The translations under genes were made by a program, and so were the position numbers. Of a stretch of 64,000 nt of DNA, positions 3,135 to 56,202 are shown in pieces. Position 1 is the first letter of the stretch, and every line of letters starts with the position of its first letter. Source of the DNA: a virus (taxonomy: Duplodnaviria > Caudoviricetes); IMG/VR virus record IMGVR_UViG_3300044611_001018. One strand, written 5' to 3'. Under the pieces are notes generated by a model. The model searched no databases. It was not told the DNA's origin and worked only from the letters and a program-made list of their open reading frames with translations.

Positions 3135-3248
3135 TCATTTTTTCTTACCACCATTCTTTGCCTTTTTAGCAGTAGCATTACCCTGGTTCTGCTTGGATTG
3201 TTTTCCTCCAGCAGAACCTTTCTTACCTTTATTAGCAGACTTGGACAT
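3135..3248 (-). CDS. Small Lys/Gly-rich basic peptide (37 aa)
   Basis: Manual translation MSKSANKGKKGSAGGKQSKQNQGNATAKKAKNGGKKK; TAATG coupling to the upstream gene. Confidence 0.55.
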   Translation of the reverse strand: MSKSANKGKKGSAGGKQSKQNQGNATAKKAKNGGKKK

Positions 3249-3589
3249 TATGCTCCTGTGCGGGGTTGAACGTAACCTTCACCATCTTCCACCTTAGTTT
3301 CAAGTGCTTCAACTCTTGCTTCAAGAGTTTCTGGTGCTTCTGGTTCTGGTGGAGCAGCAGCAACTACTTCTTCCCTACGTGGTTCCTCTTTTTGGTCATC
3401 ATCATCTCCACCTTTCTTCATGGTGTTAATTCCAAAGGTTGCAGCGGAGGCAGTAAAAACGGTTGCGATAAAAGTTGGATCCATTTTAGCAAGAAGCCCA
3501 GCATACGATGCTGTCAGAAGTGCGGCAGACCAACTCAAAATCGAAATACGAATCAATTGTCCCATAGCGTTTTCCTTTTTCTTTTCCAT
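3248..3589 (-). CDS. Two-TM membrane protein with acidic C-tail (possible holin-like)
   Basis: Two hydrophobic segments followed by an acidic tail; lies near the lysin genes. Confidence 0.45.
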   Translation of the reverse strand: MEKKKENAMGQLIRISILSWSAALLTASYAGLLAKMDPTFIATVFTASAATFGINTMKKGGDDDDQKEEPRREEVVAAAPPEPEAPETLEARVEALETKVEDGEGYVQPRTGA

Positions 3590-3625: not shown

Positions 3626-5956
3626 TTAGAACTTAAACTTGACTTTTGCAGCAACAGAATTGTTAGTAACTCCATTGTTTACACCATGAGAACCTTCAAC
3701 AAATAATATTTCTTTATAATCCAGAGAAGCACTTACACCATAAGAACTATCAGTTCCATAAGCACCTTCTACACTGACACCAAATAAATCTTTCTTCTTG
3801 CCACCAAAACGAGTTTCTAATTTAAGTCCTGCTTCACCAACATGTGTTGTTTGATTGTGACCATCAACACTTCTAGCAGACTGAATGGAACCAGTTTCAT
3901 TATATGCATTTCTCTTTACATTTTGAACAGTATAACCAATAAATGGTTTTACTGCTTTATTAAGATGCCAATATAATCGATTAGAAACCCACCACTCAGT
4001 TCCAGTTGTTTCACCAGCATTATTAAAGACACCTTCTACATTTCTATTGTACTTATAATTGCTGTTCGCAATCGCAGCATTGGTATTCAGAGTCAGTGTA
4101 TTACCTCTGAGTTCACTGAATATACCGAAATGGTCTTTGTTCTGTTGTGTGCTTGAGTCAACGCCATTGAGGTTTGTGTTAACTCTATTATACTGAGCAC
4201 CAAGAGTCCAACCTTTGGTTACATCAAACTCAAACCCACCACCGAAGATTTTAGAATCAGCATTATAACCATCAGCATTATAAGACTGAACAAATCTGTT
4301 ATTCTCAAATACTCTTAATCTTTGATTACCTGCGGTTGGTTCATGATTCAAAAGTCCATTAATACCATCATTAATTCCATCAAGAACTTCTAACTGATCC
4401 ACTCTACCAAAGTAAAAATCATAAGAATCTGATACTGCAACATCATTAGAATAAGCATAAGAATATGATGGAGTTCCGTCAATTACGGTTGTTGTTCCAT
4501 CAGCATAAACAGTTGTGGTAACTGGAGTTGTAGTTGTGGTAGTAACCATTGGAGTGGTTACAGTTGTCACCGTTTGTTTTTTGATTTGTTGTTTTCCACT
4601 AGATTCACTTGCTTCAAAATTATATACTTTGGTTGTAACTGCTGGAAGTGTTTGAGAAGCGGCAATCGCAGAAGAAACGGAAGGAGCAATCGTTGATGTA
4701 TAGTTTAGAACTGTTGCCGTTACTTGCGATGTAGAAGGTCCATTAGACGTTGAACTAGTTACAACTGGCGTTCCATTTGATGTGGTTGTAGAACCATCAG
4801 AATATGTGGTGGTTGTAACTGGAGTTGTAGTTGTGGTAGTTGTAGTAACTGGAGTTGTAGTTTCTACAGTATCAGTATAGTTCTGAACTACTCCATATCC
4901 ATTACCGTCAAGATTGCTTACATTATAAGTAACCTGAGCTGTTACTACAACATTTGAAGTTGATGAAGATGTTGATACCTGATCTGTTGTAGATGTTCCA
5001 GTTACTGTTGGAGCAGGTGGTGGTGTTGGAGTTGGAGTTGGAGGTGTGGGTGGGGTTGGATTTACTGTGGGAGCATTTGGATTGTTGGGAGCAACAGCAC
5101 CAAATGGTTGTCCATTTGCTAATGTAGTTCCTGGTTGACTATCAACTAAAAGAACTGGTGAAAGTGAAGTATCTCCAAGATTAAATACTGCAAATCCTAA
5201 TAGGTAAGCACCAGTTACATCAACTTGATATGTTGAATTTTGCCATCCAGTAGAACCATAGGTTCCTGTTGAGTAATCTCCTGTTCCTGGATTGGTAAAT
5301 CCAAGTAGAGCATAGTTCTGAACATAGTTATTGACAGTTACGACTGGAGTAGAACCAGTTCCCTGATAAACAAGAGATGTGATAGAACCATCGTTAAATG
5401 GAACATAATCAGTTCCAATGTAGTTCCAAGACATCGTGTAAGTAGTTCCAGCATCAAGATTTACATTTTGAGTTATCCAAGCAGCATTAGTTGGATTGGG
5501 ATTTCCTAGTCCCGATGCTTGTTGGTCTTGCTGAAGTTTTGTTTTGATTGCTTGATTTTCTGCAGATGTAAGACCTAATGCAGAAGTTGCTGCATCAAAT
5601 GTTGTTGAACCTGTTGGTTGTAATGCAGCACCAGCAGTTCCATATGGAGAGAATGTCCAAGTTGTTGGTGTTGTTGCTGGGGCATGATATGGATTTGGCG
5701 ATCCATCTTGAAGAGTAGGACTTCCTACCGCGCCATGAGAAGGAGCATTAAATGTTACTGAACCATTGATTGCGGTGACACCAGTTCCGTTACCAGTGAT
5801 TGTTCCATTTGTTAGATTTCCTGGTTGAGATCCAACATTCCATCCAGATAGTGTTCCCCCCTCAAAATCTGTACCAGAAATCGTATCCGCAAATGCGGTT
5901 GGTGCTCCCATTAAAAGAGCAGACGCTACAGCAAGCGCCTTCTTAGCGTAAGACAT
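3626..5956 (-). CDS. Autotransporter-like outer membrane protein (signal peptide, passenger domain, Thr-rich stalk, C-terminal beta-barrel)
   Basis: N-terminal signal ending PTAFA; Pro/Thr-rich linker; amphipathic beta strands; terminal ...KVKFKF aromatic BAM-type signal. Confidence 0.65.
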   Translation of the reverse strand: MSYAKKALAVASALLMGAPTAFADTISGTDFEGGTLSGWNVGSQPGNLTNGTITGNGTGVTAINGSVTFNAPSHGAVGSPTLQDGSPNPYHAPATTPTTWTFSPYGTAGAALQPTGSTTFDAATSALGLTSAENQAIKTKLQQDQQASGLGNPNPTNAAWITQNVNLDAGTTYTMSWNYIGTDYVPFNDGSITSLVYQGTGSTPVVTVNNYVQNYALLGFTNPGTGDYSTGTYGSTGWQNSTYQVDVTGAYLLGFAVFNLGDTSLSPVLLVDSQPGTTLANGQPFGAVAPNNPNAPTVNPTPPTPPTPTPTPPPAPTVTGTSTTDQVSTSSSTSNVVVTAQVTYNVSNLDGNGYGVVQNYTDTVETTTPVTTTTTTTTPVTTTTYSDGSTTTSNGTPVVTSSTSNGPSTSQVTATVLNYTSTIAPSVSSAIAASQTLPAVTTKVYNFEASESSGKQQIKKQTVTTVTTPMVTTTTTTPVTTTVYADGTTTVIDGTPSYSYAYSNDVAVSDSYDFYFGRVDQLEVLDGINDGINGLLNHEPTAGNQRLRVFENNRFVQSYNADGYNADSKIFGGGFEFDVTKGWTLGAQYNRVNTNLNGVDSSTQQNKDHFGIFSELRGNTLTLNTNAAIANSNYKYNRNVEGVFNNAGETTGTEWWVSNRLYWHLNKAVKPFIGYTVQNVKRNAYNETGSIQSARSVDGHNQTTHVGEAGLKLETRFGGKKKDLFGVSVEGAYGTDSSYGVSASLDYKEILFVEGSHGVNNGVTNNSVAAKVKFKF
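4519..4840. repeat. Internal duplication in the Thr-rich stalk (25-nt exact repeat at 4519-4543 and 4816-4840)
   Basis: taactggagttgtagttgtggtagt occurs twice; protein repeat TTPVTTTxYxDGxTT..GTP. Confidence 0.7.
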
Positions 5957-5960
5957 AAAA

Positions 5961-6042
5961 AGTCCTCTATGACTCAGTGTGTACTAAACGAAACAAACTA
6001 AAGTTGTTTAAAAGTAAAGTATTCACCAAGTCTCAGAGGACT
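5961..6042 (-). promoter_or_regulatory. Structured 5' leader pairing with the SD of the autotransporter gene
   Basis: AGTCCTCT pairs with AGAGGACT (contains the SD), and GACTTGGTG pairs with CACTGAGTC; about 17 bp of stem. Confidence 0.55.
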
Positions 6043-6095
6043 CGGGGTATGTAGATTCAGACCAGTTAAGATCAAGAATCAGTTATGATTGTAAC

Positions 6096-6102
6096 TATTT
6101 AT
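6096..6102 (-). promoter_or_regulatory. Late promoter (ATAAATA) for the autotransporter-like gene
   Basis: Matches the gp55-type late consensus; overlaps the lysozyme stop codon. Confidence 0.55.
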
Positions 6103-6767
6103 CCTTTTTTCCAAGCTTCACCTTCTGCCTTTCTTCTACGTGCTAAACCTGCTTCCACATTAGAACCAGGATTGCGGTAGAGATAAAGAGCATCGGGAAC
6201 TAAGTCCCACTCCTTATTCTTCAGGCGTTTAGTAATAGTATTAAAGTTATCACCACCGTAGAAACCAGCGCCGAGATTATAAGCAAAGCTGAGAAGAGCG
6301 CCTCTTTTTCCATCTGACATTTCCCCCCAATGTGGAATTTTACGAAGTGCAGGAAGAAACTGGTTCTTGCACTGACTAATCAATAGTTCATCAGCTTCCT
6401 GTTGTGTGATTGCATCACCCATCTTAAATGGGGAACCATCTTTCTTACGAGTTGAACCCCATCCGATTGTGATTGGAAGTCCACCAGATAAGGGGTCTGG
6501 ATATGCCTTTAGATGGCATCCTTCAAACTCTTTAATCAACTTGATGCCCATTTGTGGGACATCATCACCACCAGTTACAGGAGCTGCAGCAGCGGCAGGG
6601 TCTGGTGCAGCACTAGTCTTTTTTCCACGATAAATCTCTGCCCAATCTACATTGTCCTCAAGGAACTTAACTGGGAGATTATCTTCTAACCACTGAACTG
6701 CTTTAACATGGTTAGGATTCTTCTCGTCATAAAACTTGAAGAAGTTGTGTAAATCAATCCTTGCCAT
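6099..6767 (-). CDS. GH24 phage lysozyme (endolysin) with N-terminal accessory module
   Basis: IKEFEGCHLKAYPD..TIGWG catalytic E/D/T motif; ALLSFAYNLG; GLARRRKAE. Confidence 0.9.
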   Translation of the reverse strand: MARIDLHNFFKFYDEKNPNHVKAVQWLEDNLPVKFLEDNVDWAEIYRGKKTSAAPDPAAAAAPVTGGDDVPQMGIKLIKEFEGCHLKAYPDPLSGGLPITIGWGSTRKKDGSPFKMGDAITQQEADELLISQCKNQFLPALRKIPHWGEMSDGKRGALLSFAYNLGAGFYGGDNFNTITKRLKNKEWDLVPDALYLYRNPGSNVEAGLARRRKAEGEAWKKG

Positions 6768-6963
6768 TTGGTCCTCCTACATTTGGAAAATAAATTTGAA
6801 ACAATTCGTCTGCTTCTTTATGTCGTCCTTGGTTTGTGAGTTTTTTCACTTCTTCCAGAATTTTTTTCTTAAACTCAGTCGAAGATCCTTCCCCACCCAT
6901 CATTACCTCCTGGGCACCAACGATGCTTGAGAACTGCTTTAGTGTAAATGGTCTTCTTACCAT
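6754..6963 (-). CDS. Small hypothetical protein; real start probably near 6903
   Basis: ORF sits between the two lysin-like genes; helical KKKILEEVKKL segment. Confidence 0.45.
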   Translation of the reverse strand: MVRRPFTLKQFSSIVGAQEVMMGGEGSSTEFKKKILEEVKKLTNQGRHKEADELFQIYFPNVGGPNGKD

Positions 6964-7546
6964 TTGTCACAGGACCAGTATAGTTATCGTTGAGGGAACC
7001 ATATGGGTCATTAACAAAATATCCTTTACCATCTGGAGTCTTACCGATGACTACACACATGTGTCCACCAGTAGGATTAGATAAAGAACCGCGATGCAGG
7101 ATACCAATAACAACAGGTTTTCCAGCATCAAGACTCTTATCAATGTCAGCAAAGGAAAGATTGTAACTAAAGTGGGACTTAATACCATAACCTGCGAGGA
7201 CTTTTGTCTGTACCGCATGGTCAGTCGTGTCGCCAATCGCAAATACCTTTTTAACGTACTCATCGTCGCCTTTGATACTTCCTGGCTTGAGGAAGGCAAG
7301 GCACATAGCGCACGATGAACTGTTACAAGTTCTATGTGCATCTCTGTAGTTATCTACTTGATTAAAATATGGAACATCAAGTACTGCTGGAGTTGGTGGT
7401 TTAGTTCTGAAGATGCCAATCCAATCAGTCTCTGAATCATCTAGGAATTGAGCAGGTAGGTTATCCTCTAACCACTGCACTGCTGCTACATGATTCGCAT
7501 TACCATCATCATAAAACTTAAAAAAGTTATGAAGATCTAGAGTCAT
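6875..7546 (-). CDS. C39-like cysteine peptidase with the same N-terminal module as the lysozyme
   Basis: VPYFNQ..RTCNSSSCAM (catalytic Cys), GGHMCVVIG (His), VNDPYG (Asp). Confidence 0.75.
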   Translation of the reverse strand: MTLDLHNFFKFYDDGNANHVAAVQWLEDNLPAQFLDDSETDWIGIFRTKPPTPAVLDVPYFNQVDNYRDAHRTCNSSSCAMCLAFLKPGSIKGDDEYVKKVFAIGDTTDHAVQTKVLAGYGIKSHFSYNLSFADIDKSLDAGKPVVIGILHRGSLSNPTGGHMCVVIGKTPDGKGYFVNDPYGSLNDNYTGPVTNGKKTIYTKAVLKHRWCPGGNDGWGRIFD

Positions 7547-7570
7547 GGATTATCTCTATAAACACTAACG

Positions 7571-7578
7571 TATTTATA
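7571..7578 (-). promoter_or_regulatory. T4-type late promoter TATAAATA
   Basis: Perfect consensus about 25 nt upstream of the peptidase-lysozyme operon. Confidence 0.75.
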
Positions 7579-7596
7579 TTTTAGTGTTTGTAAAGA

Positions 7597-7797
7597 TTAA
7601 TACCGTTCAATTGACATAATTTCAATATCTTCTATTCCTAACGTTTCCGAATCAATCCATTCTTCAAATTCACCAGCAATTGCCATAGCATCTTTAAATT
7701 GATTCTCTGTGGGTTTGGTTTTTGTCATTGATTCGATTCGGTCCATTGCCCAATGATAAACATGACCAACAATTTCTTCAGTCGTCGCTTCTACCAT
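7597..7797 (-). CDS. Hypothetical protein (66 aa, MVEATTEEIVGHVYHW...)
   Basis: Start re-assigned to ATG 7797, which overlaps the end of the endonuclease gene. Confidence 0.55.
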   Translation of the reverse strand: MVEATTEEIVGHVYHWAMDRIESMTKTKPTENQFKDAMAIAGEFEEWIDSETLGIEDIEIMSIERY

Positions 7798-8215
7798 AAT
7801 AATCTTTTCTGTAGTATCTGCTGAGGATGTTGCTATTGTAGTAGGCAGGGGTTCCGTCGTCAAGTCCTTCTGTGAGGACATTATTAAAGAAGAGTTGTCT
7901 TGTTTCTTCAAAGTTAGTTTTGCCCTTTGTTTTATGTAATGAGATAATAGTGCGCGTAAAATTCTCCCTACCATACTTTTTCACATCCTCCTTGAGTTCT
8001 GGGCACGATCCATAATAGCACTTCCAGTCAGATTCTGCCTTAACTTTTCTAGATTTTCCTCTTGGTGTGCGGAAACTCCAGAAATACTTTCTACCAATAT
8101 ACTTGCGACCAGTCTGACTGCAATCAATACGATATACAAAACCAAAATAATCTTGAATATCACTTGAATCAAATTCCTTTCCATTGTAGATCCAAGGATT
8201 CTCATAGTCAACCAT
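7778..8215 (-). CDS. denA: GIY-YIG nuclease, T4 endonuclease II-like
   Basis: GFVYRI...KYIGRK, YYGS..L..DVKKYG.ENF.R; single catalytic domain of about 145 aa. Confidence 0.7.
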   Translation of the reverse strand: MVDYENPWIYNGKEFDSSDIQDYFGFVYRIDCSQTGRKYIGRKYFWSFRTPRGKSRKVKAESDWKCYYGSCPELKEDVKKYGRENFTRTIISLHKTKGKTNFEETRQLFFNNVLTEGLDDGTPAYYNSNILSRYYRKDYYGRSDD

Positions 8216-8244
8216 TGAGACATTACCTTTTTTGGTATTTAGAT

Positions 8245-8274
8245 AAAAAAAAGACCCCTCATGAGAGGGGTCTT
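8245..8274 (-). terminator. Rho-independent terminator followed by a CTAAATA late promoter
   Basis: aagacccctc-tcat-gaggggtctt plus U tract. Confidence 0.8.
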
Positions 8275-8278
8275 AAAC

Positions 8279-9505
8279 TCATACTCCAGGTTTTTTAACA
8301 GGTCTTGAAGGATTATTTAATGGATTTTTTGAAAATCCTGCACGATGATCAACTGGTTTTTTCTGAGCACCACCATAAGTATCTGCTCTTGGGTCTTCAC
8401 CACGTTCGATTGCACCACGAATACCATGCATCTTCATTGATCTATTTCTAGAATCGCTTCTATACTTTCCATCATCATTAGTTCCCTTTTTAAAAGCATC
8501 ACTGGCATGTTGTGCTTCCTTTGCCTTCATTTTATCAAGATTAGCACTTTTAAAAGCTTCAATGATTTCATCAATAGTATCAAAGTCAAGTTCGTTTGCC
8601 ATAATCCATTCTGCATCTTCTAAGGTATCTGCATAACCTTCTACACAAAGATACTCAAGAACGATATCATAAGTATCAAACTCTTCACCCAATTTGGAAG
8701 CAACCTTACCAGCACCAGTGGAGACTGCTCTTGCTGCCTTACCTACAGCACTCTTAGCACCTGCTTTTGCTGCACCTGCTGCACCCTTTACATTACGCTT
8801 TGCAACTGCTGCCTTATTCTTAACAGATTGTACTGCTCTGTTTTTGACATCAGATGCTGCTTGCTTAGCAGAACGTGCTGCTGCATATCCTGAGACTGCT
8901 GCAGATGCTGCCTTTTGCTTTACTTTACCAATTGCAGATTTAATTTTTGATTTAACTCTAGAACCTACATGCTTGACAACTGCAGAGCGAAGTTCACCTC
9001 TACCTTTGCTTGACTGAGTTTTAAGACCTGCACCCTTAACTAAATTATGCTTACTTGCATATTTTGCAAGACCAACATGAGACTGCTGCTTAAGTCCCTT
9101 TGTAGTCTTCTCAGCAGATCCTTTAGCAGAAATAGCTTTTGTTTTAACTTTCTTAACTGTACTCTTAACTGCACCCTTTACCTTTTCCTTTGCTGCAGAG
9201 ACTGCTGCTGCTCTCTCAGCACCACGCTTAGATGATGAAGTTGACTTTTGATATGCTCTAGCATCTTTTGATCCAGCAGGAGCATATGGATTAAGTTCCA
9301 TAATTACTGCTTCAAAAATATCATCTAACTCATCAAGTTCAAGACCTTCTTCTAAAACTTCATAGACAGTTTCTTCAACAATGTCACTGAAATTCTCTTC
9401 AGTCAGATCTTCGATACCGTCGTATTCCTCTGAAAGGAATTCTTCAACCAATTCAATTGGTTCATAAATTGCTTGGTATGCTTCAGAAATATTAGTAAAG
9501 TTCAT
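8279..9505 (-). CDS. Acidic/basic modular protein, probable head-internal protein (408 aa)
   Basis: Acidic helical modules flank a long K/A-rich segment; TATAAATA late promoter at 9531-9538. Confidence 0.55.
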   Translation of the reverse strand: MNFTNISEAYQAIYEPIELVEEFLSEEYDGIEDLTEENFSDIVEETVYEVLEEGLELDELDDIFEAVIMELNPYAPAGSKDARAYQKSTSSSKRGAERAAAVSAAKEKVKGAVKSTVKKVKTKAISAKGSAEKTTKGLKQQSHVGLAKYASKHNLVKGAGLKTQSSKGRGELRSAVVKHVGSRVKSKIKSAIGKVKQKAASAAVSGYAAARSAKQAASDVKNRAVQSVKNKAAVAKRNVKGAAGAAKAGAKSAVGKAARAVSTGAGKVASKLGEEFDTYDIVLEYLCVEGYADTLEDAEWIMANELDFDTIDEIIEAFKSANLDKMKAKEAQHASDAFKKGTNDDGKYRSDSRNRSMKMHGIRGAIERGEDPRADTYGGAQKKPVDHRAGFSKNPLNNPSRPVKKPGV

Positions 9506-9530
9506 ATCCCTAGAATTAGATGTTTATTTG

Positions 9531-9561
9531 TATTTATAAAAAAAGGGAGGTTAACCCTCCC
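9531..9561 (-). terminator. nrdB terminator fused to a TATAAATA late promoter
   Basis: gggagg/cctccc hairpin plus T tract running directly into TATAAATA. Confidence 0.75.
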
Positions 9562-9566
9562 TAGTA

Positions 9567-10745
9567 TCAAAGTTTAAATCCAGTAAAAGTATCTTTATTA
9601 ACATCCTGTTTAATTCCACCAACAACATAAGATTCAACTTCTGTTTCTTGTGGAGCAACTTGCAATCCTTTTGAAGAAATCCAATGCTGTGTCCAAGGAA
9701 GTGGATTGTTCTTTGCAGAAATATCATAAAGAGGTTTAAGACCAATCGATTTCATTCTACGATTAGCAATCCATTCAACATACTGACAAAGAAGTTTATC
9801 ATTTAATCCAATCATAGAACCATCTTTAAACAAATATTCTGCCCATCTCTTTTCTTCATTTACCGCACGTTCAAACATTTTATAGACCCACTCTTCCTCT
9901 TCTTTTGCAATTTGCTTCATCTCAGGGTCATCACCATCTCGCCACTTATTCAAAATATTTTGGGTAATTGCTAAATGTTGGTTTTCGTCTCTTGCGATAA
10001 GACTAATAATTTTAGCTGATCCTTCCATAAGCTTAAGCTCACCAAATGCGAAAGAACAAGCAAAGCTAACGTAGAACCTAATACCTTCAAGAATATTGAC
10101 GTTGGCAACTGCTCTGTAGAGTTTTCGTTTAGCATCTTTGAGTGACTCCTTTGCTGAGTATACACCCTCTAATCGATGTAACCAATCATGTGAAGAACCG
10201 TATTGTTGTGCCGCTTGGATAAAGTCATCATATGACTCAGTAACACTCCTAGCACGTTCTAGAATACGTTCGTCTGTGATGATAGCGTCGAATACTTCAC
10301 TAGGGTCGGAATAAACATTTTTAATAATATATGTGTATGAGCGACTATGAATCATCTCCATGAATCCCCACACTTCCATACATGCTTCCAATTCAGGAAG
10401 TGAGCAGTATGGAATAAATGCCATTCCAGGTCCACGACCCTGAACAGAGTCCAACATAATCTGATACTTCAAGTTAGAAGTGTAGATATGCTTTTGTTCA
10501 GGGCGTAATGTTTGATAGTCACCACGGTCCTTCTGGAGAGATACCTCTTCAGGTCTCCAGAAGTATCCAAGTTGTTGGGTGGTTAGTTTATCGAAGACTG
10601 GATATTTGTATGAATCATATCTCTGGATTCCTAACGGTTGACCAAAAAACATTGGTTGTTTTTTTAATTCTACTTGTTCGGTGTTAAAAACCGTCATTCC
10701 TCTGATATTTTGTTTTTTGTCGGTTTCCAGAAAATTAAATTGCAT
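9567..10745 (-). CDS. nrdB: Ribonucleotide reductase class Ia beta subunit
   Basis: FWRPEEV, EMIHSRSY, LEGIRFYVSF, RDENQH, VAPQETE motifs. Confidence 0.97.
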   Translation of the reverse strand: MQFNFLETDKKQNIRGMTVFNTEQVELKKQPMFFGQPLGIQRYDSYKYPVFDKLTTQQLGYFWRPEEVSLQKDRGDYQTLRPEQKHIYTSNLKYQIMLDSVQGRGPGMAFIPYCSLPELEACMEVWGFMEMIHSRSYTYIIKNVYSDPSEVFDAIITDERILERARSVTESYDDFIQAAQQYGSSHDWLHRLEGVYSAKESLKDAKRKLYRAVANVNILEGIRFYVSFACSFAFGELKLMEGSAKIISLIARDENQHLAITQNILNKWRDGDDPEMKQIAKEEEEWVYKMFERAVNEEKRWAEYLFKDGSMIGLNDKLLCQYVEWIANRRMKSIGLKPLYDISAKNNPLPWTQHWISSKGLQVAPQETEVESYVVGGIKQDVNKDTFTGFKL

Positions 10746-10793: not shown

Positions 10794-13106
10794 TCAAATT
10801 TTACAACTTTCACAATCTTCCTCTTCAGAAGTTTCTAGAATATCATCAAGAAGATTCTTGACTTTATTATCTATCTTATCTTCAATTTCATCACTCTTCA
10901 TATCATGAGTGTTCTGATAATAAGAAGTCTTCCAACCATACTTGTAAGTTCTTAAAAAGTCATTTGCCATTACTGAAGTAGGAACTTCATTATCGGGATA
11001 ATTTTCTGGATTATACGACCAGTTTCCAGAAATCGCTTGATCGAAGAACTTTTGCATAACAGCAACAATATTGATATAACCAGTATTGTCAGGCATATCC
11101 CAAAGAAGCGTATAAGCATTCTTAAGTGTTTGATACTGCGGGACAATCTGCTTGAGAGGTCCCTTCTTCGACTTTTTAACGGACAAGTATCCGCGAGGAG
11201 GTTCGATTCCATTGGTTGCGTTTGACACAACGGAACTGCTCTCCGATGGCATCTGTGCGGACAGTGTTGAGTGCCTGAGACCGTGAGCCAGGATTGATGC
11301 TCTAAGTTCTTCCCAATCATGTTGAAGGTTAATAGATGAAATTTCGTCTACGTCTTTTTTGTATGTATCGATTGGGAGAATACCATCAGCATACTTTGTT
11401 CTATTGAAATATGTACAAGAACCTTTTTCTTTTGCTATTTGATTAGATGATTTCAACAAATAGTATTGAAAAGATTCTGACAATCCATGAACTGCATCCC
11501 ATGCTTCTTGTGAAGAATAATTATATCCAAGTTTTGCCAAATAGTGTGCTAGACCAATATACCCTACACCAAGAGAACGACGCGCCTTCGTGGCGATTTC
11601 TGCCGCCTTTACTGGGTATTTCTGATAGTCAATTAACTCCTCAAGTCCTCGAACAGACAAGTCACAAAGTTCTTCAAGTTCTTCATCAGACTTAACTTTT
11701 CCAACATTAATGGCAGAAAGAATGCAGAGTGCAATTTCACCTTCACCATCAATGTGTTCAAGAGGGTCTGTTGGAAGAGTAATTTCTTGACACAAGTTAC
11801 TCATATTCACCTTATCTTTAAAAGATGAATGAGAATTACAATGGTCAATATTCATAATGTAAATACGACCAGTCTCTGCCCTCTCTTTCAAGAGGTCCAG
11901 AATGAGTTCTTGAGCTCCAATAGTTTTTCTTGGAACAGACTGATCTCGTTCATAATCCACATACATATCGTCAAATCGATCAGTCCCAAAAGCATCATAC
12001 AGACCAGGAACGTCGTGCGGGGAGAAGAGGGTAATTTCTCCGTCTTGAATGAATCGTTCATAGAAGAGTTTAGAAATTTGGATACTGTAGTCTAACTTAC
12101 GAACACGATTATCTTCGGTTCCTTTATTATTTTTTAATACAAGAATGTCCTCTATTTCTTGGTGCCAGATTGGGAAGTGGACAGTTGCTGATCCACCTCG
12201 GATGCCATTTTGAGTGCAGCATCGGACAGTTGCCTCAAACTTTTTGAGGAATGGGATAACACCTGTATGAGCAACTTCTCCCCCTCGGATTTTGCTGTTG
12301 ATGCCACGGATGCGACCTGCGTTGATACCGATTCCCGCCCTTTGTGCAACATACCTGCCGATAGCCATATCAGAAGTAAAGATGCTATCGAGGGTGTCAT
12401 CAACATCAACAAGAACACAGCTAGCAAATTGTCGAAGTGGAGTTCGCACTCCTGCCATGATAGGTGTGGGAATGTTGATTTTGTGCTTTGAGATTGCGTC
12501 ATAGTACCTCCTGACATATGACATTCTGGTTTCTTTGGGATACTCTGCAAAGATAGTCAGAGCAATCATCATATACATGAACTGAGGAGTTTCATATACA
12601 CCTCCACCACTTCTATCCTGCACAAGGTACTTATCAACTACCTGGCGAAGTCCAGCATAAGTGAATAAGAAATCACGAGTATGGTCAATAAAACTATTAA
12701 CCTTTGCAAATTCCTCTTTAGTATATCTAGAAAGAATATCTTCATCATAGACACCTTTGTTAACGCATTTATCAATATGCTCACTTAAAGTGGGGATATC
12801 ATGCAGTTTTCCATAAATTGATTTACGAATAGAAAACAAAAGAAGTCTTGCTGCCACATACTGATAATTTGGGTGTTCAAGATCAATCAAGTCAGAAGCA
12901 GACCGAATTAAAATTTCTTGAATTTGAGATGTTGTTACACCATCATAAAATTGTATTCCAGATTGAATCTCTACTTGAGATGCAGACACTCCCGCAAGGT
13001 CTTTACATGCAAGATCAACCATTACATGCATCTTATCAAGGTTGATTGGTTCAACCTTACCGCTTCTCTTAATTACTTTAATTCCGTTGCTCATATTTTC
13101 TTCCAA
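10794..13106 (-). CDS. nrdA: Ribonucleotide reductase class Ia alpha subunit
   Basis: N-terminal ATP cone; PTPIMAG, QFASCVL, SNLCQEI, C-terminal CESCKI. Confidence 0.98.
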   Translation of the reverse strand: MEENMSNGIKVIKRSGKVEPINLDKMHVMVDLACKDLAGVSASQVEIQSGIQFYDGVTTSQIQEILIRSASDLIDLEHPNYQYVAARLLLFSIRKSIYGKLHDIPTLSEHIDKCVNKGVYDEDILSRYTKEEFAKVNSFIDHTRDFLFTYAGLRQVVDKYLVQDRSGGGVYETPQFMYMMIALTIFAEYPKETRMSYVRRYYDAISKHKINIPTPIMAGVRTPLRQFASCVLVDVDDTLDSIFTSDMAIGRYVAQRAGIGINAGRIRGINSKIRGGEVAHTGVIPFLKKFEATVRCCTQNGIRGGSATVHFPIWHQEIEDILVLKNNKGTEDNRVRKLDYSIQISKLFYERFIQDGEITLFSPHDVPGLYDAFGTDRFDDMYVDYERDQSVPRKTIGAQELILDLLKERAETGRIYIMNIDHCNSHSSFKDKVNMSNLCQEITLPTDPLEHIDGEGEIALCILSAINVGKVKSDEELEELCDLSVRGLEELIDYQKYPVKAAEIATKARRSLGVGYIGLAHYLAKLGYNYSSQEAWDAVHGLSESFQYYLLKSSNQIAKEKGSCTYFNRTKYADGILPIDTYKKDVDEISSINLQHDWEELRASILAHGLRHSTLSAQMPSESSSVVSNATNGIEPPRGYLSVKKSKKGPLKQIVPQYQTLKNAYTLLWDMPDNTGYINIVAVMQKFFDQAISGNWSYNPENYPDNEVPTSVMANDFLRTYKYGWKTSYYQNTHDMKSDEIEDKIDNKVKNLLDDILETSEEEDCESCKI

Positions 13107-14062
13107 GTGGTAAATTTAAGTTTTGCTTCTAATCCAGAATAAGTATTTAATTCTATCACGGACTTAACATCAAGTCCAGATAAAACCATATCATTAATAT
13201 CTTTTTCTTTTATACTAGAGGGCCAGATGACAATTCTTTCTCCTCGTTCAATGGCACGAGCAATGCGGGAGACGATTTCGGCATTACGTGGTTCGTTATC
13301 ATAGATCCAAACAGGATTGCTAATACCCCACTTACCAAGATCACCATCAGCTCCACAAAGAGCAATCGAGTTTGGAATGAAAGTGGAATCGAACGGACCT
13401 TCGGTGACGTAGATAGTTTTGTCTTTTTGTATTTGATTGAGTCCATAAATTTTTGGGGCATCTTCACTAAGCATCACAGTAATATATTTAACAGAGTTTG
13501 AACCTAAGGATCTTCCCTGGAATCCAATCAAGTTATTATCAGTATCATACATTGGTATAATAATGCGACTTTCATCTCTACCAATGGTGTCGAACGTAAC
13601 TTTTTGAGTGTTAGTCCACTCTTTAAATTTGTCAGTGAAATAAAACTTTTCTGGATTAAGTTTTCTATTTTCTAGATACTCTCTGGCAATTGGAACTTCT
13701 GATGCTTTGGGCAAATCCAGTTTCTTTTTAAATACTGGTTTTGCAAATTCAAATTTAGGTTCTTCTGTTGTAAAATTTTTTCCAGTATGACCTTCTTTAA
13801 ATTTTTCTAAAGTATATTTTTTATAAAGTTCGGAGTCAACCTTTTTTAAGAAGTTATTAAAAGATAAACTAACTCCACAGTTATGGCATTTATAATTTGC
13901 ATTATTCTTTACATTGTAAATATATCCACGCGCCTTAGTTTTGTTCTTTTGAGAATCTCCACAAATTGGACACCTAAAATTATACAGGTCTTTCTTTACA
14001 AACTTAAACTTTTGAAGACGAGGAGCTATTAGGTTAATAAACCTAACGTCAACATAATCCAT
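13091..14062 (-). CDS. gp61: DNA primase (T4 gp61-like)
   Basis: Zn finger CPICGDS...CHNC; TOPRIM YVTEGPFDS, IYDNEPRN; start re-assigned to MDYVD at 14062. Confidence 0.93.
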   Translation of the reverse strand: MDYVDVRFINLIAPRLQKFKFVKKDLYNFRCPICGDSQKNKTKARGYIYNVKNNANYKCHNCGVSLSFNNFLKKVDSELYKKYTLEKFKEGHTGKNFTTEEPKFEFAKPVFKKKLDLPKASEVPIAREYLENRKLNPEKFYFTDKFKEWTNTQKVTFDTIGRDESRIIIPMYDTDNNLIGFQGRSLGSNSVKYITVMLSEDAPKIYGLNQIQKDKTIYVTEGPFDSTFIPNSIALCGADGDLGKWGISNPVWIYDNEPRNAEIVSRIARAIERGERIVIWPSSIKEKDINDMVLSGLDVKSVIELNTYSGLEAKLKFTTWKKI

Positions 14063-14084
14063 AACAATTAATTTGAGTTGACCA

Positions 14085-14113
14085 ATACTACCATCCCCAG
14101 AACCTGCTGTCAA
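14085..14113 (-). promoter_or_regulatory. Sigma70-type promoter for primase-nrdA-nrdB
   Basis: TTGACA-N17-TAGTAT. Confidence 0.7.
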
Positions 14114-14248
14114 CCTCCAAATCCATTAAACAGACACTAATAACGCTAGTCCATTTAATGACTGTGTTTGTTAATTCTTGTAGACAGTAAACTGAGTCAA
14201 TATTCTTATGTTGTTTCTTAATCATGGTTCTAACTAAACCATGATTAT

Positions 14249-20515: not shown

Positions 20516-20598
20516 TACCCAGTATAGGACTTGAACCTACACACCATAAAGATAACAGGACCTAAACCTGTCGCGTCTACCAATTCCGCCAACTGGGC
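20516..20598 (-). tRNA. trnL: tRNA-Leu(TAG), no encoded CCA
   Basis: Acceptor GCCCAGT/ACTGGGT; D loop GGAATTGGTAG; anticodon stem ACAGG/CCTGT with loop TTTAGGT; long variable arm; GGTTCAAGTCC T arm. Confidence 0.93.
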
Positions 20599-36682: not shown

Positions 36683-37123
36683 TTAGAGATAATCTCTACG
36701 AGCATGATGATCTGGAACTACTTTACCAAGAACAATAGTCAACAATCCATTATCAAAGGCAACCTCTCGTACTTCAGTGTCATCAGCGATTGTCCACGCT
36801 CTTTTGAAAGATCGTTGAGCCAATCCCTTATGGAGGTAATGGGTATCAGTCTCTCTGTCCTCCTTTTGCCCTTCGACAAAAAGTTTTCCATACTCCGTGT
36901 ATACATGAACTTCCTCCTTTTTAAATCCAGCAAGTGCAAGTTCTAGGCGTGATTCCACATTGCTTACCTGAACAAGATTGTATGGTGGATAATTAGATGT
37001 AGTTTCATGAAGATTAAATAGACGATCAAAATATTCATCCATTCCAATGCTATTGCGGGTAATCCTGTCCATCAAGGCAGGCAAATCCGCAGATGTAAAC
37101 CGTGAGGTTACAAGGTTAGTCAT
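36683..37123 (-). CDS. hsp20: Small heat shock protein (Hsp20/IbpA-like)
   Basis: NYPPYN, LALAGF, HKGLAQRSF, NGLLTI; SD AAAGGAG before ATG 37123. Confidence 0.93.
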   Translation of the reverse strand: MTNLVTSRFTSADLPALMDRITRNSIGMDEYFDRLFNLHETTSNYPPYNLVQVSNVESRLELALAGFKKEEVHVYTEYGKLFVEGQKEDRETDTHYLHKGLAQRSFKRAWTIADDTEVREVAFDNGLLTIVLGKVVPDHHARRDYL

Positions 37124-37198
37124 TATGGTAGCTCCTTTAAAAGCGAGTTTGTATTTTGTGGACCCTTTCGGCACCCATTACTAATTATACAAGATTAC

Positions 37199-37224
37199 AA
37201 AAAAAGAGGGGTAGTAAACCCCTC
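37199..37224 (-). terminator. regA terminator
   Basis: gagggg/cccctc stem plus T tract; TATAAT -10 for hsp20 at 37184-37189. Confidence 0.75.
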
Positions 37225-37244
37225 ACTTTTTTATACGGTTTCTA

Positions 37245-37685
37245 TTACTCATCGTCAGATGGTTTCTTCTTAGACCCAATATTATATTTTTGTTCTAGAA
37301 TCCAGTCTCCTTTATCTTTATAAGAGAGAACTTTAATTTGATTAAGTGGTGCAATGTCACTAATAGAGTCTCCATTCACAACACTAATCAGACCCCAATC
37401 CGAAAGAAGTCTTGCAATTCTATTCCTTCTTTGAATATCATTGACAGTAAGATTTGCGTGTTTGCCATCTAAAGCAAACAATTCTTTAAAGTGGGTAATA
37501 TAATATCTACCTTGCTTATGTAGAATATGGCAAGATTGATAGAGTTTTTTCTCCTTGCGCGATGCAACTCCGATGCGAGTTAAAGTTTCACGAACTTTAA
37601 GGAAGTCGTCAGGTTCATTAAGAATAACTTCCACCATCATATTGGGTGTCCAATTAACCTGAGGTTCAATAGTATTATTAGTCAT
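37245..37685 (-). CDS. regA: Translational repressor RegA
   Basis: DDFLKVRETLTRIG..LYQSCHILHKQG.YYI.HFKE. Confidence 0.95.
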   Translation of the reverse strand: MTNNTIEPQVNWTPNMMVEVILNEPDDFLKVRETLTRIGVASRKEKKLYQSCHILHKQGRYYITHFKELFALDGKHANLTVNDIQRRNRIARLLSDWGLISVVNGDSISDIAPLNQIKVLSYKDKGDWILEQKYNIGSKKKPSDDE

Positions 37686-47142: not shown

Positions 47143-47367
47143 TCAACTGTCTTGGAATTTTTTATTAACTTCTTCCATAAATTGTTCAAATGTTCTTTGG
47201 CGCGGATTATAATTTGGGGTTACATCAGATCTAATTGGTCTTCCCCCAACGTTTGGTCCTAAATTTTGCCTTCTCTTCTTTTCAAACTCATGTTGCTTTG
47301 CTGGAGATCTTTTCTTTTTAGGAATTGGTAATCCAGTAATACCAATTTCAGTTTCGTCTTTTGCCAT
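47143..47367 (-). CDS. Small basic hypothetical protein
   Basis: ATAAATA at 47381-47387; K/R-rich. Confidence 0.6.
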   Translation of the reverse strand: MAKDETEIGITGLPIPKKKRSPAKQHEFEKKRRQNLGPNVGGRPIRSDVTPNYNPRQRTFEQFMEEVNKKFQDS

Positions 47368-47375
47368 AATTTTTT

Positions 47376-47522
47376 TTAAATATTTATGAAAAAAGAAGAA
47401 GCGTCTCGATTGAGACGCTTTTTAAGTGCTTGACGACGTGCCTTTGCTTGTCGGAGTGCTTGCGGTTTTAGTTTCCGCTTCTGCTCCTTTTTAGAGTGGT
47501 GTTGCCAATTGGGGGTGTTCAT
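47376..47522 (-). CDS. Small highly basic protein (48 aa)
   Basis: MNTPNWQHHSKKEQKRKLKPQALRQAKARRQALKKRL... Confidence 0.55.
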   Translation of the reverse strand: MNTPNWQHHSKKEQKRKLKPQALRQAKARRQALKKRLNRDASSFFINI

Positions 47523-54166: not shown

Positions 54167-54726
54167 AATTTATTTCCTTTTGGGTCATATATATCGTAAA
54201 TAGTATACTTGAAAGATACCTCTGCAGTAAAGTATTCTACATCTGGATTGGTAGCATCAAATGTTAATTCTGACAAATCATATGGAAACATATCTTTAAA
54301 TATAACATCAAACTGTGGTCTTTGATTGCTATTCAAAATTTGCAAAGTTCCATCAGAATAAATGTTCATGGATTTGCTATCAAATCCTAACTGAGTATTA
54401 TCTTGTTTTTGTAAGTTATAAATTTCTTCTAATGACTCTGGAAATCCAAGACCACGCATCCATCTTTGAATCTCCATATAATTTTCTAAATTCTCATCTA
54501 CAATAAATCTTAGAGTAAAATCTTGAAATACTATTTTATCTCCTGGAATATCAATATTTTTTAGATAAGTTGGTTGCTCTGCAACACCTAAAGTCATTCC
54601 TGGTATATTTGCAGAGTTAGAAAAGAATGATACTTTACGTGCTCTATTCAAAGTAAATTTGAATGCAATAGAAGATAGAAAATTTCTATTTTGGATTTGA
54701 TTACTATAAAGATTACCTGTAGTCAT
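54163..54726 (-). CDS. gp3: Tail completion / sheath stabiliser protein
   Basis: NFLS..FKF..ANIPG.TLG..PGDK..F.VDE.L.NY.EI..W; CTAAATA at 54738-54744. Confidence 0.85.
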   Translation of the reverse strand: MTTGNLYSNQIQNRNFLSSIAFKFTLNRARKVSFFSNSANIPGMTLGVAEQPTYLKNIDIPGDKIVFQDFTLRFIVDENLENYMEIQRWMRGLGFPESLEEIYNLQKQDNTQLGFDSKSMNIYSDGTLQILNSNQRPQFDVIFKDMFPYDLSELTFDATNPDVEYFTAEVSFKYTIYDIYDPKGNKL

Positions 54727-54746
54727 TGTTTTCTAACTATTTAGAT

Positions 54747-54773
54747 AAAAAAAGAGACCCTTTCGGGTCTCTT
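54747..54773 (-). terminator. gp23 terminator
   Basis: agagaccc-gaaa-gggtctct plus T tract. Confidence 0.85.
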
Positions 54774-54792
54774 GATTAAATTGTGACCAGAC

Positions 54793-56202
54793 TCACATGA
54801 GGTTCTTGATTTGAACTCTTCTGTAGTAACGGTTTGCGTTAACTTGAAGTCTGCCGAGACCCTGAGTGGTGCCTTCAGCGAATGGGTTAGCAACAAGACC
54901 GTATCTGGTCTTAAAGCCAATCTTAGGCTGGAAGGTGTTCTCACCAACGGCACGAACCATTTGGAGAGGAACGTAAGGGCAATAGAACAGACCTGCATCA
55001 TAAGGGGAAGAACCCTTATAACCAACAACGTAGTACTGGTTAGCAGATACGTTTGCTGAATAAGGATCGATATATACGCGATACTTACCAAGCAGAACAC
55101 CCGCAAAGGTGTTACCAGTGTCATCAACGTTGAGGTTTGCGTTCAGAGCAGGAGTGTAATCAAGTACACCAGCCATGCTCAGTGCAGAAGCAACGTCTGC
55201 GGAACACATAACAACGTTACCCTTTCCTCTACGAGTTCTTTGTGCGATTGCGTTAGCATCACGCTCGATTTGGAACAGGAGACCCTTGAACTTTTCAACT
55301 GACCAACGACCATTGGAGTCGATGTCGAGGTCGAATACACCAGCGGTAGCAGTGTTAGCAGCAGCACCTTGCTCAGCAACCTTGTAGATGGTTCTGATGA
55401 CTTCTCTGTTGATTTCTGCGAGGATTTCAGTAGAGAGAATGTTAGCAAGTTCTGCTTCTGCATTCAGACCGTGAATTGCCTTCAGGTCTTGTGCAAGCTC
55501 AAGACTGTATTCTGCCTTCAGTGCTCTTGACTTTGCTTCAACAAGGACTTTCTCAATTGAGAATGCCATTTCGTTGAACTGGTTACCTGCACCGTTACCG
55601 AGATTCTCAGAATCTCCAGTGTACATACCCTGACCAACGTTGTAACCATCAGAACCAGTTGAAGAACCAGTACCAACTGGGTTCAGAAGACCTGGGTTTG
55701 AACCATACTGAGTAGTAGTACCCATACCAGCAGCAACGTTAGTTGCAGCGGTGAGACCAATACCAGAGTTCTGACCAGAGAATACTGTATCTGCTTCGTT
55801 AAACAGAGCTTCAGTGCCGCTCTGGTTGGTGTAGCGTGAACGCATTGCGAAGATGAGTCCAGTAGGACCACTCATTGGTTGAACGCCTGCGAGGTCATAT
55901 GCGACCAGGTTAGGCATTGCACGTCTGATGAGTGAAATCAGAACTGGATCAAAACCTGCTACAGGACCTGCAGCAGTAGCGGAACCTGAGAAACCACCTG
56001 AAGCACCAGCAGCGTTTCCGCTATTGGTTGGGGATTCCATCAGCATTCCATTTGAGAAAGCTGATTGCTCTCTCAGGAATTTTTCTTGGTTTTCTAACAG
56101 GACAGCGGTTACTGCTCTTCTGTGTGAATCTTTGATTGGATCAAGACCATCATAGTCGAGAAGTGGTGCCCACTTTTCCTGCAGATGCTCGGATTGGAAC
56201 AT
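54793..56202 (-). CDS. gp23: Major capsid protein
   Basis: LQEKWAPLLD, GVQPMSGPTGLIFAMR, KSRALKAEYSLELAQDLKAIHG, QPKIGFKTRYG. Confidence 0.98.
   Translation of the reverse strand: MFQSEHLQEKWAPLLDYDGLDPIKDSHRRAVTAVLLENQEKFLREQSAFSNGMLMESPTNSGNAAGASGGFSGSATAAGPVAGFDPVLISLIRRAMPNLVAYDLAGVQPMSGPTGLIFAMRSRYTNQSGTEALFNEADTVFSGQNSGIGLTAATNVAAGMGTTTQYGSNPGLLNPVGTGSSTGSDGYNVGQGMYTGDSENLGNGAGNQFNEMAFSIEKVLVEAKSRALKAEYSLELAQDLKAIHGLNAEAELANILSTEILAEINREVIRTIYKVAEQGAAANTATAGVFDLDIDSNGRWSVEKFKGLLFQIERDANAIAQRTRRGKGNVVMCSADVASALSMAGVLDYTPALNANLNVDDTGNTFAGVLLGKYRVYIDPYSANVSANQYYVVGYKGSSPYDAGLFYCPYVPLQMVRAVGENTFQPKIGFKTRYGLVANPFAEGTTQGLGRLQVNANRYYRRVQIKNLM

Follow-up and report, generated by a model that had tools for sequence, protein, structure and literature searches.

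In bacteriophage T4, the start regions of the genes e (lysozyme), soc, 49 and I-TevI are held in inhibitory hairpins at the TIR. Translation is poor from transcripts with the complete hairpin; a late promoter is located in the region of the 5' strand, so that late transcripts do not contain that strand and are translated (PMC3014915). In the leader of the MS2 maturation gene, the Shine-Dalgarno (SD) sequence pairs with an upstream complement that is first held in a local hairpin, and this leader, a cloverleaf in the RNA genome, refolds slowly, over seconds to minutes (PMC4615214). T4 late boxes are situated about one helical turn ahead of the transcript start (PMC2988020), and the late-promoter consensus of cyanomyoviruses is given as NATAAATA (PMC2984593).

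The leader described here precedes an autotransporter-like gene of a freshwater (lake) T4-like cyanomyovirus. It occurs in two structural classes, and the window, which is the whole stretch of 64,000 nt analysed, carries a leader of class 1. Like the T4 e-type genes, it belongs to a T4-type phage, has the SD and/or the AUG in a leader helix and is associated with a TATAAATA-type late promoter; this pairing is seen in class 1, and the class 2 helix stops 6-7 nt short of the AUG. Unlike in the T4 e-type genes, the rod formed by the leader is several times longer, and the box lies upstream of the whole hairpin instead of inside it or in its 5' strand. No TAAATA was found inside the hairpin in either class. 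The closest internal motif is TAAACA, in class 1 only, and it was rejected as a late box, since the approximately eight late-type boxes at other junctions all read TAAATA.

The likeness to MS2 lies in a leader of ~130 nt whose SD pairs with an upstream complement, and in the anti-SD CCUCU being placed in the loop of a 5'-arm hairpin. An SD-pairing segment that would first be held in a local hairpin was observed in class 1 only (10 of 11 variants). The differences are that the structure is a rod in the mRNA of a DNA phage, that its predicted refolding barrier is low and that class 2 has no SD. The barrier from the nascent state to the rod, a heuristic estimate obtained with findpath, was 1.4-6.3 kcal/mol in six variants, and the rod is more stable than the alternative conformer by 16 kcal/mol. 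The local hairpin of the 5' arm is thus real, but with so low a predicted barrier it is not, unaided, a convincing kinetic trap of the MS2 kind. It could be a protein-binding conformer.

The window also contains a layout of the T4 gene e type, at the C39-like peptidase gene (6875-7546). The hairpin upstream of this gene (7547-7612, minus strand; z = -3.8) pairs as far as the AUG, and its apical part includes a perfect TATAAATA box (7578-7571), so that late transcripts would be made without the inhibitory 5' arm. This hairpin was not conserved in DSL-LC02, where a plain terminator and TATAAATA are found.

The locus and its cassette

The leader lies on the minus strand between a lysozyme gene and the autotransporter-like gene (Table 1). 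The translation of the latter reads as a signal peptide, a passenger domain, a Pro/Thr-rich stalk and a C-terminal beta-barrel, the N-terminus MSYAKKALAVASALLMGAPTAFA being the part that looks like a signal peptide. Nearby genes encode a C39-like peptidase, a SegE-like GIY-YIG endonuclease, nrdA and a DUF6450 membrane protein. The SegE-like homing endonuclease gene (7778-8215, minus strand; PF19835, E = 6e-55) is situated immediately upstream of the lysin genes and is missing from the equivalent position of DSL-LC02.

The nearest records are the metagenome-assembled Synechococcus phages DSL-LC02 and DSL-LC03, both Kyanoviridae (PMC10611076), and DSL-LC02 is 84.8% identical to the window across the lysozyme gene and the leader. 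When the autotransporter gene was sought among cultured phages, only these two metagenome-assembled records were found to have it; PMC10611076 mentions neither the autotransporter gene nor promoters. In DSL-LC03 (L002:3992-5433), two tandem annotated endolysin genes lie upstream of the autotransporter gene, and the leader follows the second only.

Table 1. Positions of the leader, its parts and the flanking genes in the window.
Feature	Position	Strand	Description
DUF6450-matching gene	3248-3589		window counterpart of the ~115-aa protein
Autotransporter-like gene (regulated gene)	3626-5956	(-)	776 aa; Pfam PF03797, E = 3.9e-15
Lysozyme gene, GH24 phage lysozyme (upstream gene)	6099-6767	(-)	Pfam PF00959, E = 9e-22; outside the cassette
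Lysozyme stop codon	6101-6099	(-)	overlapped by the late-promoter box
Late-promoter box, T4-type	6103-6096	(-)	GATAAATA
Leader	5957-6098	(-)	untranslated
hp1, 5'-proximal hairpin	6080-6054	(-)	GAUUC..GAUC-loop-GGUC.GAAUC; in MFE folds
Lower helix, 5' strand	6052-6048	(-)	ACAUA; pairs with UAUGU including the start codon; in MFE
5'-arm local palindrome	6045-6039 with 6032-6026	(-)	CCGAGUC with GACUUGG
Rod, 5' arm	6043-6024	(-)	GAGUCCUCUGAGACUUGGUG; contains anti-SD-like CCUCU; helices 4 and 5
Basal helix of rod	6043-6024 with 5979-5960	(-)	20 bp; one A/A mismatch in the window
First pairing	6042-6035 with 5968-5961	(-)	AGTCCTCT with SD-bearing AGAGGACT
Second pairing	6032-6024 with 5979-5971	(-)	GACTTGGTG with CACTGAGTC; includes three G-U pairs
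Rod, apical arm	6023-5980	(-)	internal loops, UACU/AGUA, AC/GU, AAACA/UGUUU and tetraloop
Rod, 3' arm	5979-5960	(-)	CACUGAGUCAUAGAGGACUU; holds the SD AGAGGA (5968-5963)
UU linker and start codon	5959-5953	(-)	AUG = 5956-5954
Lower helix, 3' strand	5957-5953	(-)	UAUGU; spans the AUG

An earlier note, made from the letters of the window, had described a leader of roughly 140 nt after ATAAATA. The leader is 142 nt long, and ATAAATA is contained in the late-promoter box, from which a late transcript start is predicted near 6090. The core TAAATAG was present in all leaders, regardless of the upstream gene or of the position of its stop codon. In all class-1 matches, 69-76 nt separate the TAAATA box from the inner end of the 5' arm downstream, and in every variant the box is ~50 nt upstream of the entire hairpin. 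A scan for promoters of the sigma-70 type inside the hairpin found none on either strand; candidate hexamers picked by eye were discarded, as their spacing is not kept across variants.

Linkage of the leader to the autotransporter gene was followed with a 16-mer from the 5' arm, the scan for which gave 115 matches. Leader-like sequence was found at 58 of the 115, and all 58 precede an autotransporter ORF. The remaining 57 comprise 55 chance matches in unrelated coding DNA, one leader cut by the contig end (L229) and one deletion variant (L194). In the latter (L194:5642-5760), the 5' arm and the apical part are fused straight to passenger-domain coding sequence, with loss of the 3' arm, the start codon and the signal peptide, and this is probably a decaying copy of the cassette.

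The unit of box, leader and ORF was found behind differing upstream genes (L016/L115, L138, L139, L110). In 35 loci the unit is lacking: 15-35 nt after the lysozyme gene, and with no leader, comes the gene of a ~115-aa protein whose window counterpart matches DUF6450; in the one such locus that was read (L003), the lysozyme gene ends in GGTTAA and the box is absent. The position behind various genes and the absence from these 35 loci indicate that the leader belongs to the autotransporter cassette and not to the lysozyme gene. Translational coupling to lysozyme was rejected, as its stop codon is 140 nt away on the upstream side and other loci have the cassette behind different genes. A leader peptide was likewise ruled out: the window has a frame of 19 codons that starts at a GUG in the 5' arm and ends at a UAG in the 3' arm, but apical indels of 1-3 nt shift the frame between variants and the start of the peptide is itself buried.

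At the other TAAATA junctions of the phage, the order is terminator, box, a short leader of ~15-45 nt and ATG, whereas in the autotransporter cassette it is reversed, the box being followed by the structured leader of ~130 nt and then by the ATG. Compared with the short leaders of these boxed junctions, the long structured leader of the autotransporter gene is thus exceptional.

Four boxed junctions (8210-8290, 9500-9578, 54721-54804 and 47362-47502 (-)) show a short GC-rich terminator-like hairpin with U7-8, directly followed by a late-type TAAATA box and a short unstructured leader before the ATG. One further junction (37118-37256) has a terminator-like hairpin without a box, and the layout of terminator-like hairpin plus box was also seen in DSL-LC02. 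In L057 (1660-1800), which has no autotransporter gene, the lysozyme gene is followed by GATAAATAG, ~45 nt and a compact terminator (GGUGC..GCACC and UUUUCU), and then by further TAAATA boxes before the DUF6450-like gene; this arrangement may be a remnant of the cassette or a short late RNA. Another strongly folded region of the window, 186 nt long (14063-14248, minus strand; -51 kcal/mol), lies upstream of the ORF 13091-14062 and starts with AATAAATA and a 12-bp hairpin.

Structure and conservation of the leader

The sense RNA is predicted to fold into a small 5' hairpin (hp1) and a rod of ~95 nt with the GAGG of the SD in its 3' arm, such that the basal helix of 20 bp and the lower helix would enclose both the SD and the AUG. 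The MFE of the leader was -47.6 kcal/mol (RNAfold), compared with -28.4 +/- 3.6 kcal/mol for 200 dinucleotide shuffles (z = -5.4), none of which folded as well, and almost all leader bases are paired in the MFE fold. Both pairings proposed in the earlier note were recovered, as was a gap of 4 nt (TTTT) between the SD and the ATG. RNAfold merges the two pairings into one rod, and the AU-rich inner arm that they were said to enclose corresponds to the apical arm, which is AU-rich and itself paired. Beyond that description, the fold contains hp1, the lower helix pairing with the start codon, and a palindrome internal to the 5' arm.

Relatives were drawn from 160 loci obtained in protein-seeded IMG/VR scans. 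The contigs yielded 54 distinct versions of the leader, along with further variants behind other upstream genes. In a class-1 alignment of 38 homologues, standard pairs occupied 98.8% of the pair cells, as against 28-44% when the partners were slid. Both sides had changed at 7 pairs, as against 0.8 +/- 0.8 in shuffles, and none of 500 shuffles reached this number. These values show that the structure is more than chance, and the covariation in homologous leaders that the earlier note had named as a check is there, in the form of compensatory and G-U changes. At least 5 positions of the alignment are mainly G-U and alternate with G-C or A-U. Since a G-U pair would be A-C on the complementary strand, the selected structure is that of the sense RNA and not of DNA or of an antisense transcript.

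Mean identity of the leaders to the window was 91%, whereas third codon positions were 74% identical in the lysozyme gene (last 300 nt) and 64% identical in the autotransporter gene (first 240 nt) in a gapped alignment. The leader thus forms an island of constraint and, judged from these identities, is under purifying selection. Covariation, the G-U pattern and an identity above that of third positions together uphold the view that the 5' leader of the autotransporter gene forms a structure conserved in the sense RNA.

Constraint extends over the parts of the fold. Helices 1 and 2, which form hp1, are 98-99.5% paired in A1, with UG/UA variation, and the hp1 motif UCUGAAU is invariant, DSL-LC03 included. 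The lower helix (helix 3) is 98.9% paired in the class-1 alignment (CG:34, UG:3). The apical arm is near-invariant in sequence inside class 1, and its tetraloop reads CUUUAG in the window and cUUCGg in many relatives.

Class 1, to which the window-like leaders belong, spans ~134-149 nt and includes DSL-LC02, a shortened form in DSL-LC03 and the divergent L068, L110, L139 and L141. Class 2 leaders are ~97-105 nt long; in blastn against the window, their alignment was confined to the first ~45 and the last ~30 nt, with no similarity across the hairpin. Despite its unrelated stem sequence, the class 2 hairpin (11+2+6 bp) has the same place and architecture as that of class 1, and compensatory changes have occurred both at the base of its stem (AAGG/CCUU to ACAG/CUGU) and farther within it. 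Its segments UGAGUUG and CAACUCA occur twice each. The coaxial duplex measures 20 bp in the window and in most of class 1. In class 2 it is 19-21 bp long and includes two 1x1 mismatches; just 15-18 bp are contiguous in L110 and DSL-LC03. The stems of L110, L068 and L139 are also unrelated in sequence, with the rod beside the AUG retained. What is common to all variants is a rod of ~20 bp ending 3-8 nt ahead of the AUG, this distance being 6-7 nt in class 2. The SD AGAGGA is limited to class 1. Class 2 reads CACCUU-AUUUUU-AUG, without an SD, L110 reads GUUACCGUA-UUUCU-AUG and also has none, and L068 and L139 have only the weak SD ACGGA.

In 10 of 11 divergent variants of the class-1 type, the local hairpin of the 5' arm (CCRAGU..ACUUGG) has an energy between -6 and -13 kcal/mol. 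Its energy was reached by at most 12 of 500 shuffles in 9 variants and by 45 of 500 in L001. The anti-SD CCUCU sits in or near its loop, and in L110 and L068 its outer strand lies wholly outside the rod.

Taken as a whole, the leader is an RNA family so far undescribed, of a known general kind and without an Rfam match.

Start-site occlusion and the proposed brake

Opening of positions -18 to +12 costs 22.4 kcal/mol at the autotransporter start, which is rank 1 of the 70 ORFs in the window (median 7.6, sd 3.9). The earlier note had proposed that the leader sequesters the SD. This stands for class 1, in which SD and AUG are both buried at that cost, and does not carry over to class 2, L110, L068 and L139, which have no good SD. 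It follows from these leaders that the conserved property is occlusion of the start site by structure and not SD pairing itself; SD sequestration is the class-1 form of a more general start-site occlusion.

We put at roughly one half the probability that the leader is a cis-acting translational brake, and probably also a shield for the mRNA, which would be opened by a factor acting in trans. According to this model, it would constitute the 5' UTR of a self-contained late-expression cassette made up of the TAAATAG box, the leader and the autotransporter ORF. The burial of SD and AUG would be peculiar to class 1, and in the other classes the rod would merely end 3-8 nt ahead of an AUG that has no SD. 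At equilibrium the fold would be expected to nearly abolish 30S binding, and would so act in cis as a brake on an exported beta-barrel protein, and the double-stranded, AU-rich leader would probably protect the mRNA too. The gene is intact in more than 50 phage lineages and must hence be expressed, so that something must open or cut the rod. Candidates would be a helicase, a nuclease specific for dsRNA, or a protein keeping the 5' arm folded as the local hairpin.

Several features sit uneasily with a brake. With the SD missing in class 2 and L110, and weak in L068 and L139, its sequestration is not a universal mechanism, and the class 2 AUG, placed past the end of the helix, is possibly accessible without unfolding. 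A lock of 20 kcal/mol without a key makes an incomplete mechanism, and the rod is well beyond the length that occlusion needs. The U-rich stretch after the hairpin resembles a terminator. Moreover, a purely kinetic window for translation is unsupported at the low barrier (1.4-6.3 kcal/mol) from the nascent-state hairpin.

To our knowledge, post-transcriptional control in cyanophages is almost unexplored. The leader offers a strongly conserved cis-RNA, with 54 versions in two structural classes, that is tied to one accessory gene, the phage autotransporter, carried by freshwater cyanomyoviruses only. It is a concrete test case of how a T4-like phage restrains or times an exported beta-barrel protein, and its two sequence-unrelated classes amount to a natural series of compensatory mutations. 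If the opener were a dsRNA nuclease or a phage RNA-binding protein, a new regulatory layer would be added to cyanophage late expression; a plain brake or stabiliser would provide a useful annotation and a candidate Rfam family, with no conceptual advance.

Alternative explanations

Processing by RNase III is known to activate translation in the lambda N leader, in the T7 early mRNAs and in E. coli adhE. By analogy, RNase III or another dsRNA nuclease would cut the near-perfect coaxial ~20-bp helix on both strands, which would take away the 5' arm, free the start region and leave a defined 5' end. This would be translation activated by processing, and it is the most concrete candidate for the missing key, yet we hold it to be unlikely. 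A coaxial duplex of ~20 or more bp, as expected of an RNase III substrate, is found in the window, in most of class 1 and in class 2, and it is kept in two classes that are unrelated in sequence (20 bp; 11+2+6). It exceeds what occlusion or termination would need, and the thermodynamic lock is too strong for spontaneous opening. On the other side, the 15-18 contiguous bp of L110 and DSL-LC03 fall below this length, and after a double cut the SD would still lie in a duplex of ~9 bp. The leader is like the lambda N, T7 early intercistronic and adhE sites in having a duplex of ~20 bp that includes or adjoins the ribosome-binding site; it is unlike them in its cyanobacterial host and in sequence, no similarity having been found, and cleavage here is putative.

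A conformational switch, of a sort so far undescribed among T4-type late genes, has also been considered, and to us it appears rather improbable. The dsRNA rod would consist of four mutually complementary segments, namely the two arm palindromes in class 1 and the twice-repeated UGAGUUG and CAACUCA in class 2, and would be flipped or cut by a dedicated RNA-binding protein or a dsRNA enzyme. A phage or host factor acting at a set time of infection would then bring about a timed display of the phage surface protein. In a bolder variant, the basal SD:anti-SD-like helix, lying at canonical spacing from the AUG, may dock on the 30S platform and replace the 16S pairing.

The 5' UTR of E. coli ompA, an mRNA stabiliser, has a stem-loop at its 5' end and another hairpin next to the ribosome-binding site, the site itself being single-stranded and highly active. 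Papers of the Belasco laboratory on this UTR are in the reference list of PMC7509114. The present leader could, on this pattern, be mainly a stabiliser of the mRNA, its two hairpins shielding the 5' end and the AU-rich leader from RNase E/J with little effect on translation. The layout is that of ompA, with ~130 nt, a 5'-proximal hairpin, a second one at the start site and an mRNA for an outer-membrane beta-barrel protein, and the pairing of almost every base in the leader would suit such a function. The ribosome-binding site is, however, buried here, whereas that of ompA is single-stranded, and stabilisation does not require pairing of SD and AUG. A transcript start ~6 nt after the box would truncate the 5' hairpin of class 2. 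An extreme-5' stem-loop together with an exposed, active site is not what we see. No relationship to ompA was found in sequence or in Rfam. We therefore doubt that stabilisation is the main function, and retain it as a probable second property of the proposed brake.

It is similarly doubtful that the leader is an attenuator or intrinsic terminator. The rod and the U-rich stretch would stop most transcripts ahead of the ORF and release a leader RNA of ~130 nt, and the local hairpin of the 5' arm would be an antiterminator stabilised by some factor. A hairpin followed by U-rich sequence is present in both classes (UUUUUAUG, AUUUUUAUG), the alternative hairpin overlaps the rod, and the paired repeats of UGAGUUG and CAACUCA in class 2 have the layout of an attenuator. 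Attenuators of the terminator/antiterminator type, such as the trp leader (PMC4615214), share with this element the U-rich sequence after the hairpin and an alternative hairpin overlapping the 5' arm; they differ from it in that its effective U tract is 2-3 nt (class 1) and that its hairpin is situated between promoter and start codon, in contact with the latter. In class 1 the U run begins with 2-3 bases that are paired to the 5' GAG, with covariation (GU:23, GC:9, AU:6; columns 76/173). This leaves 2-3 free U before the AUG, and the AUG too is engaged, in the lower helix; class 2 has A and U4-5. Many variants read UUCUUAUG, and the rod was not called by a terminator scan tool. The terminator-like hairpins of the window are different: at four junctions, a TAAATA box is directly preceded by a short GC stem and U7-8, and one such hairpin of DSL-LC02 is likewise unlike the rod. 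The rod has the promoter of the cassette on one side and the ORF on the other, and its constant contact with the AUG speaks for a role in translation. The alternative hairpin is the less stable of the two by 16 kcal/mol. A canonical terminator is unlikely; partial attenuation may occur, especially in class 2.

The earlier note had also suggested a riboswitch-like RNA or a thermometer, which we regard, taken jointly, as very improbable. In favour of these suggestions are the length, conservation and structure of the leader and, in class 1, internal loops whose sequence is conserved. A thermometer such as ROSE or fourU has a weak helix that masks the SD and melts in the physiological range, whereas here the opening of -15 to +3 costs 26.4, 23.5, 20.0, 17.5 and 14.0 kcal/mol at 15, 25, 37, 45 and 55 C. 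As 14 kcal/mol is still needed at 55 C, the leader would not melt at lake temperatures, and a thermometer is rejected on these computed values. The riboswitch suggestion also found no support: the leader is a single unbranched rod without a junction or pocket that could hold family-wide conserved unpaired nucleotides, and between class 1 and class 2 the loop sequences show no relationship. A switch that responds to a protein or an sRNA, which the earlier note had named as well, or to an RNase, may still apply. The Rfam search proposed in the earlier note gave, for the window, only a tRNA elsewhere at the gathering threshold, and only a chance match of 15 nt at E up to 10. This tRNA gene (20516-20598, minus strand) is the single one of the window and its sole Rfam match at that threshold.

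Finally, a DNA-level or selfish element without RNA function (a MITE-like inverted repeat, a cruciform or a recombination hotspot) might be suggested by long inverted repeats at a junction of exchanged gene cassettes, and by L084, in which the leader is ~99% and the first 240 nt of the ORF are fully identical to the window while lysozyme third positions are 78% identical, but it is hardly credible, as the positions dominated by G-U and switching to G-C or A-U make sense only in a sense-strand RNA, two sequence-unrelated classes occupy one place, and every leader-like match of the 16-mer scan precedes an autotransporter ORF, a result on which a dispersed repeat or MITE is also rejected.

The mosaic is shared by L084 and L042 when compared with positions 5700-6767 of the window. 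Identity is 99% in the leader and 100% in the first 240 nt of the autotransporter gene, but just 78% at the third codon positions of the lysozyme gene, which implies a recombination breakpoint near the junction of lysozyme gene and leader.
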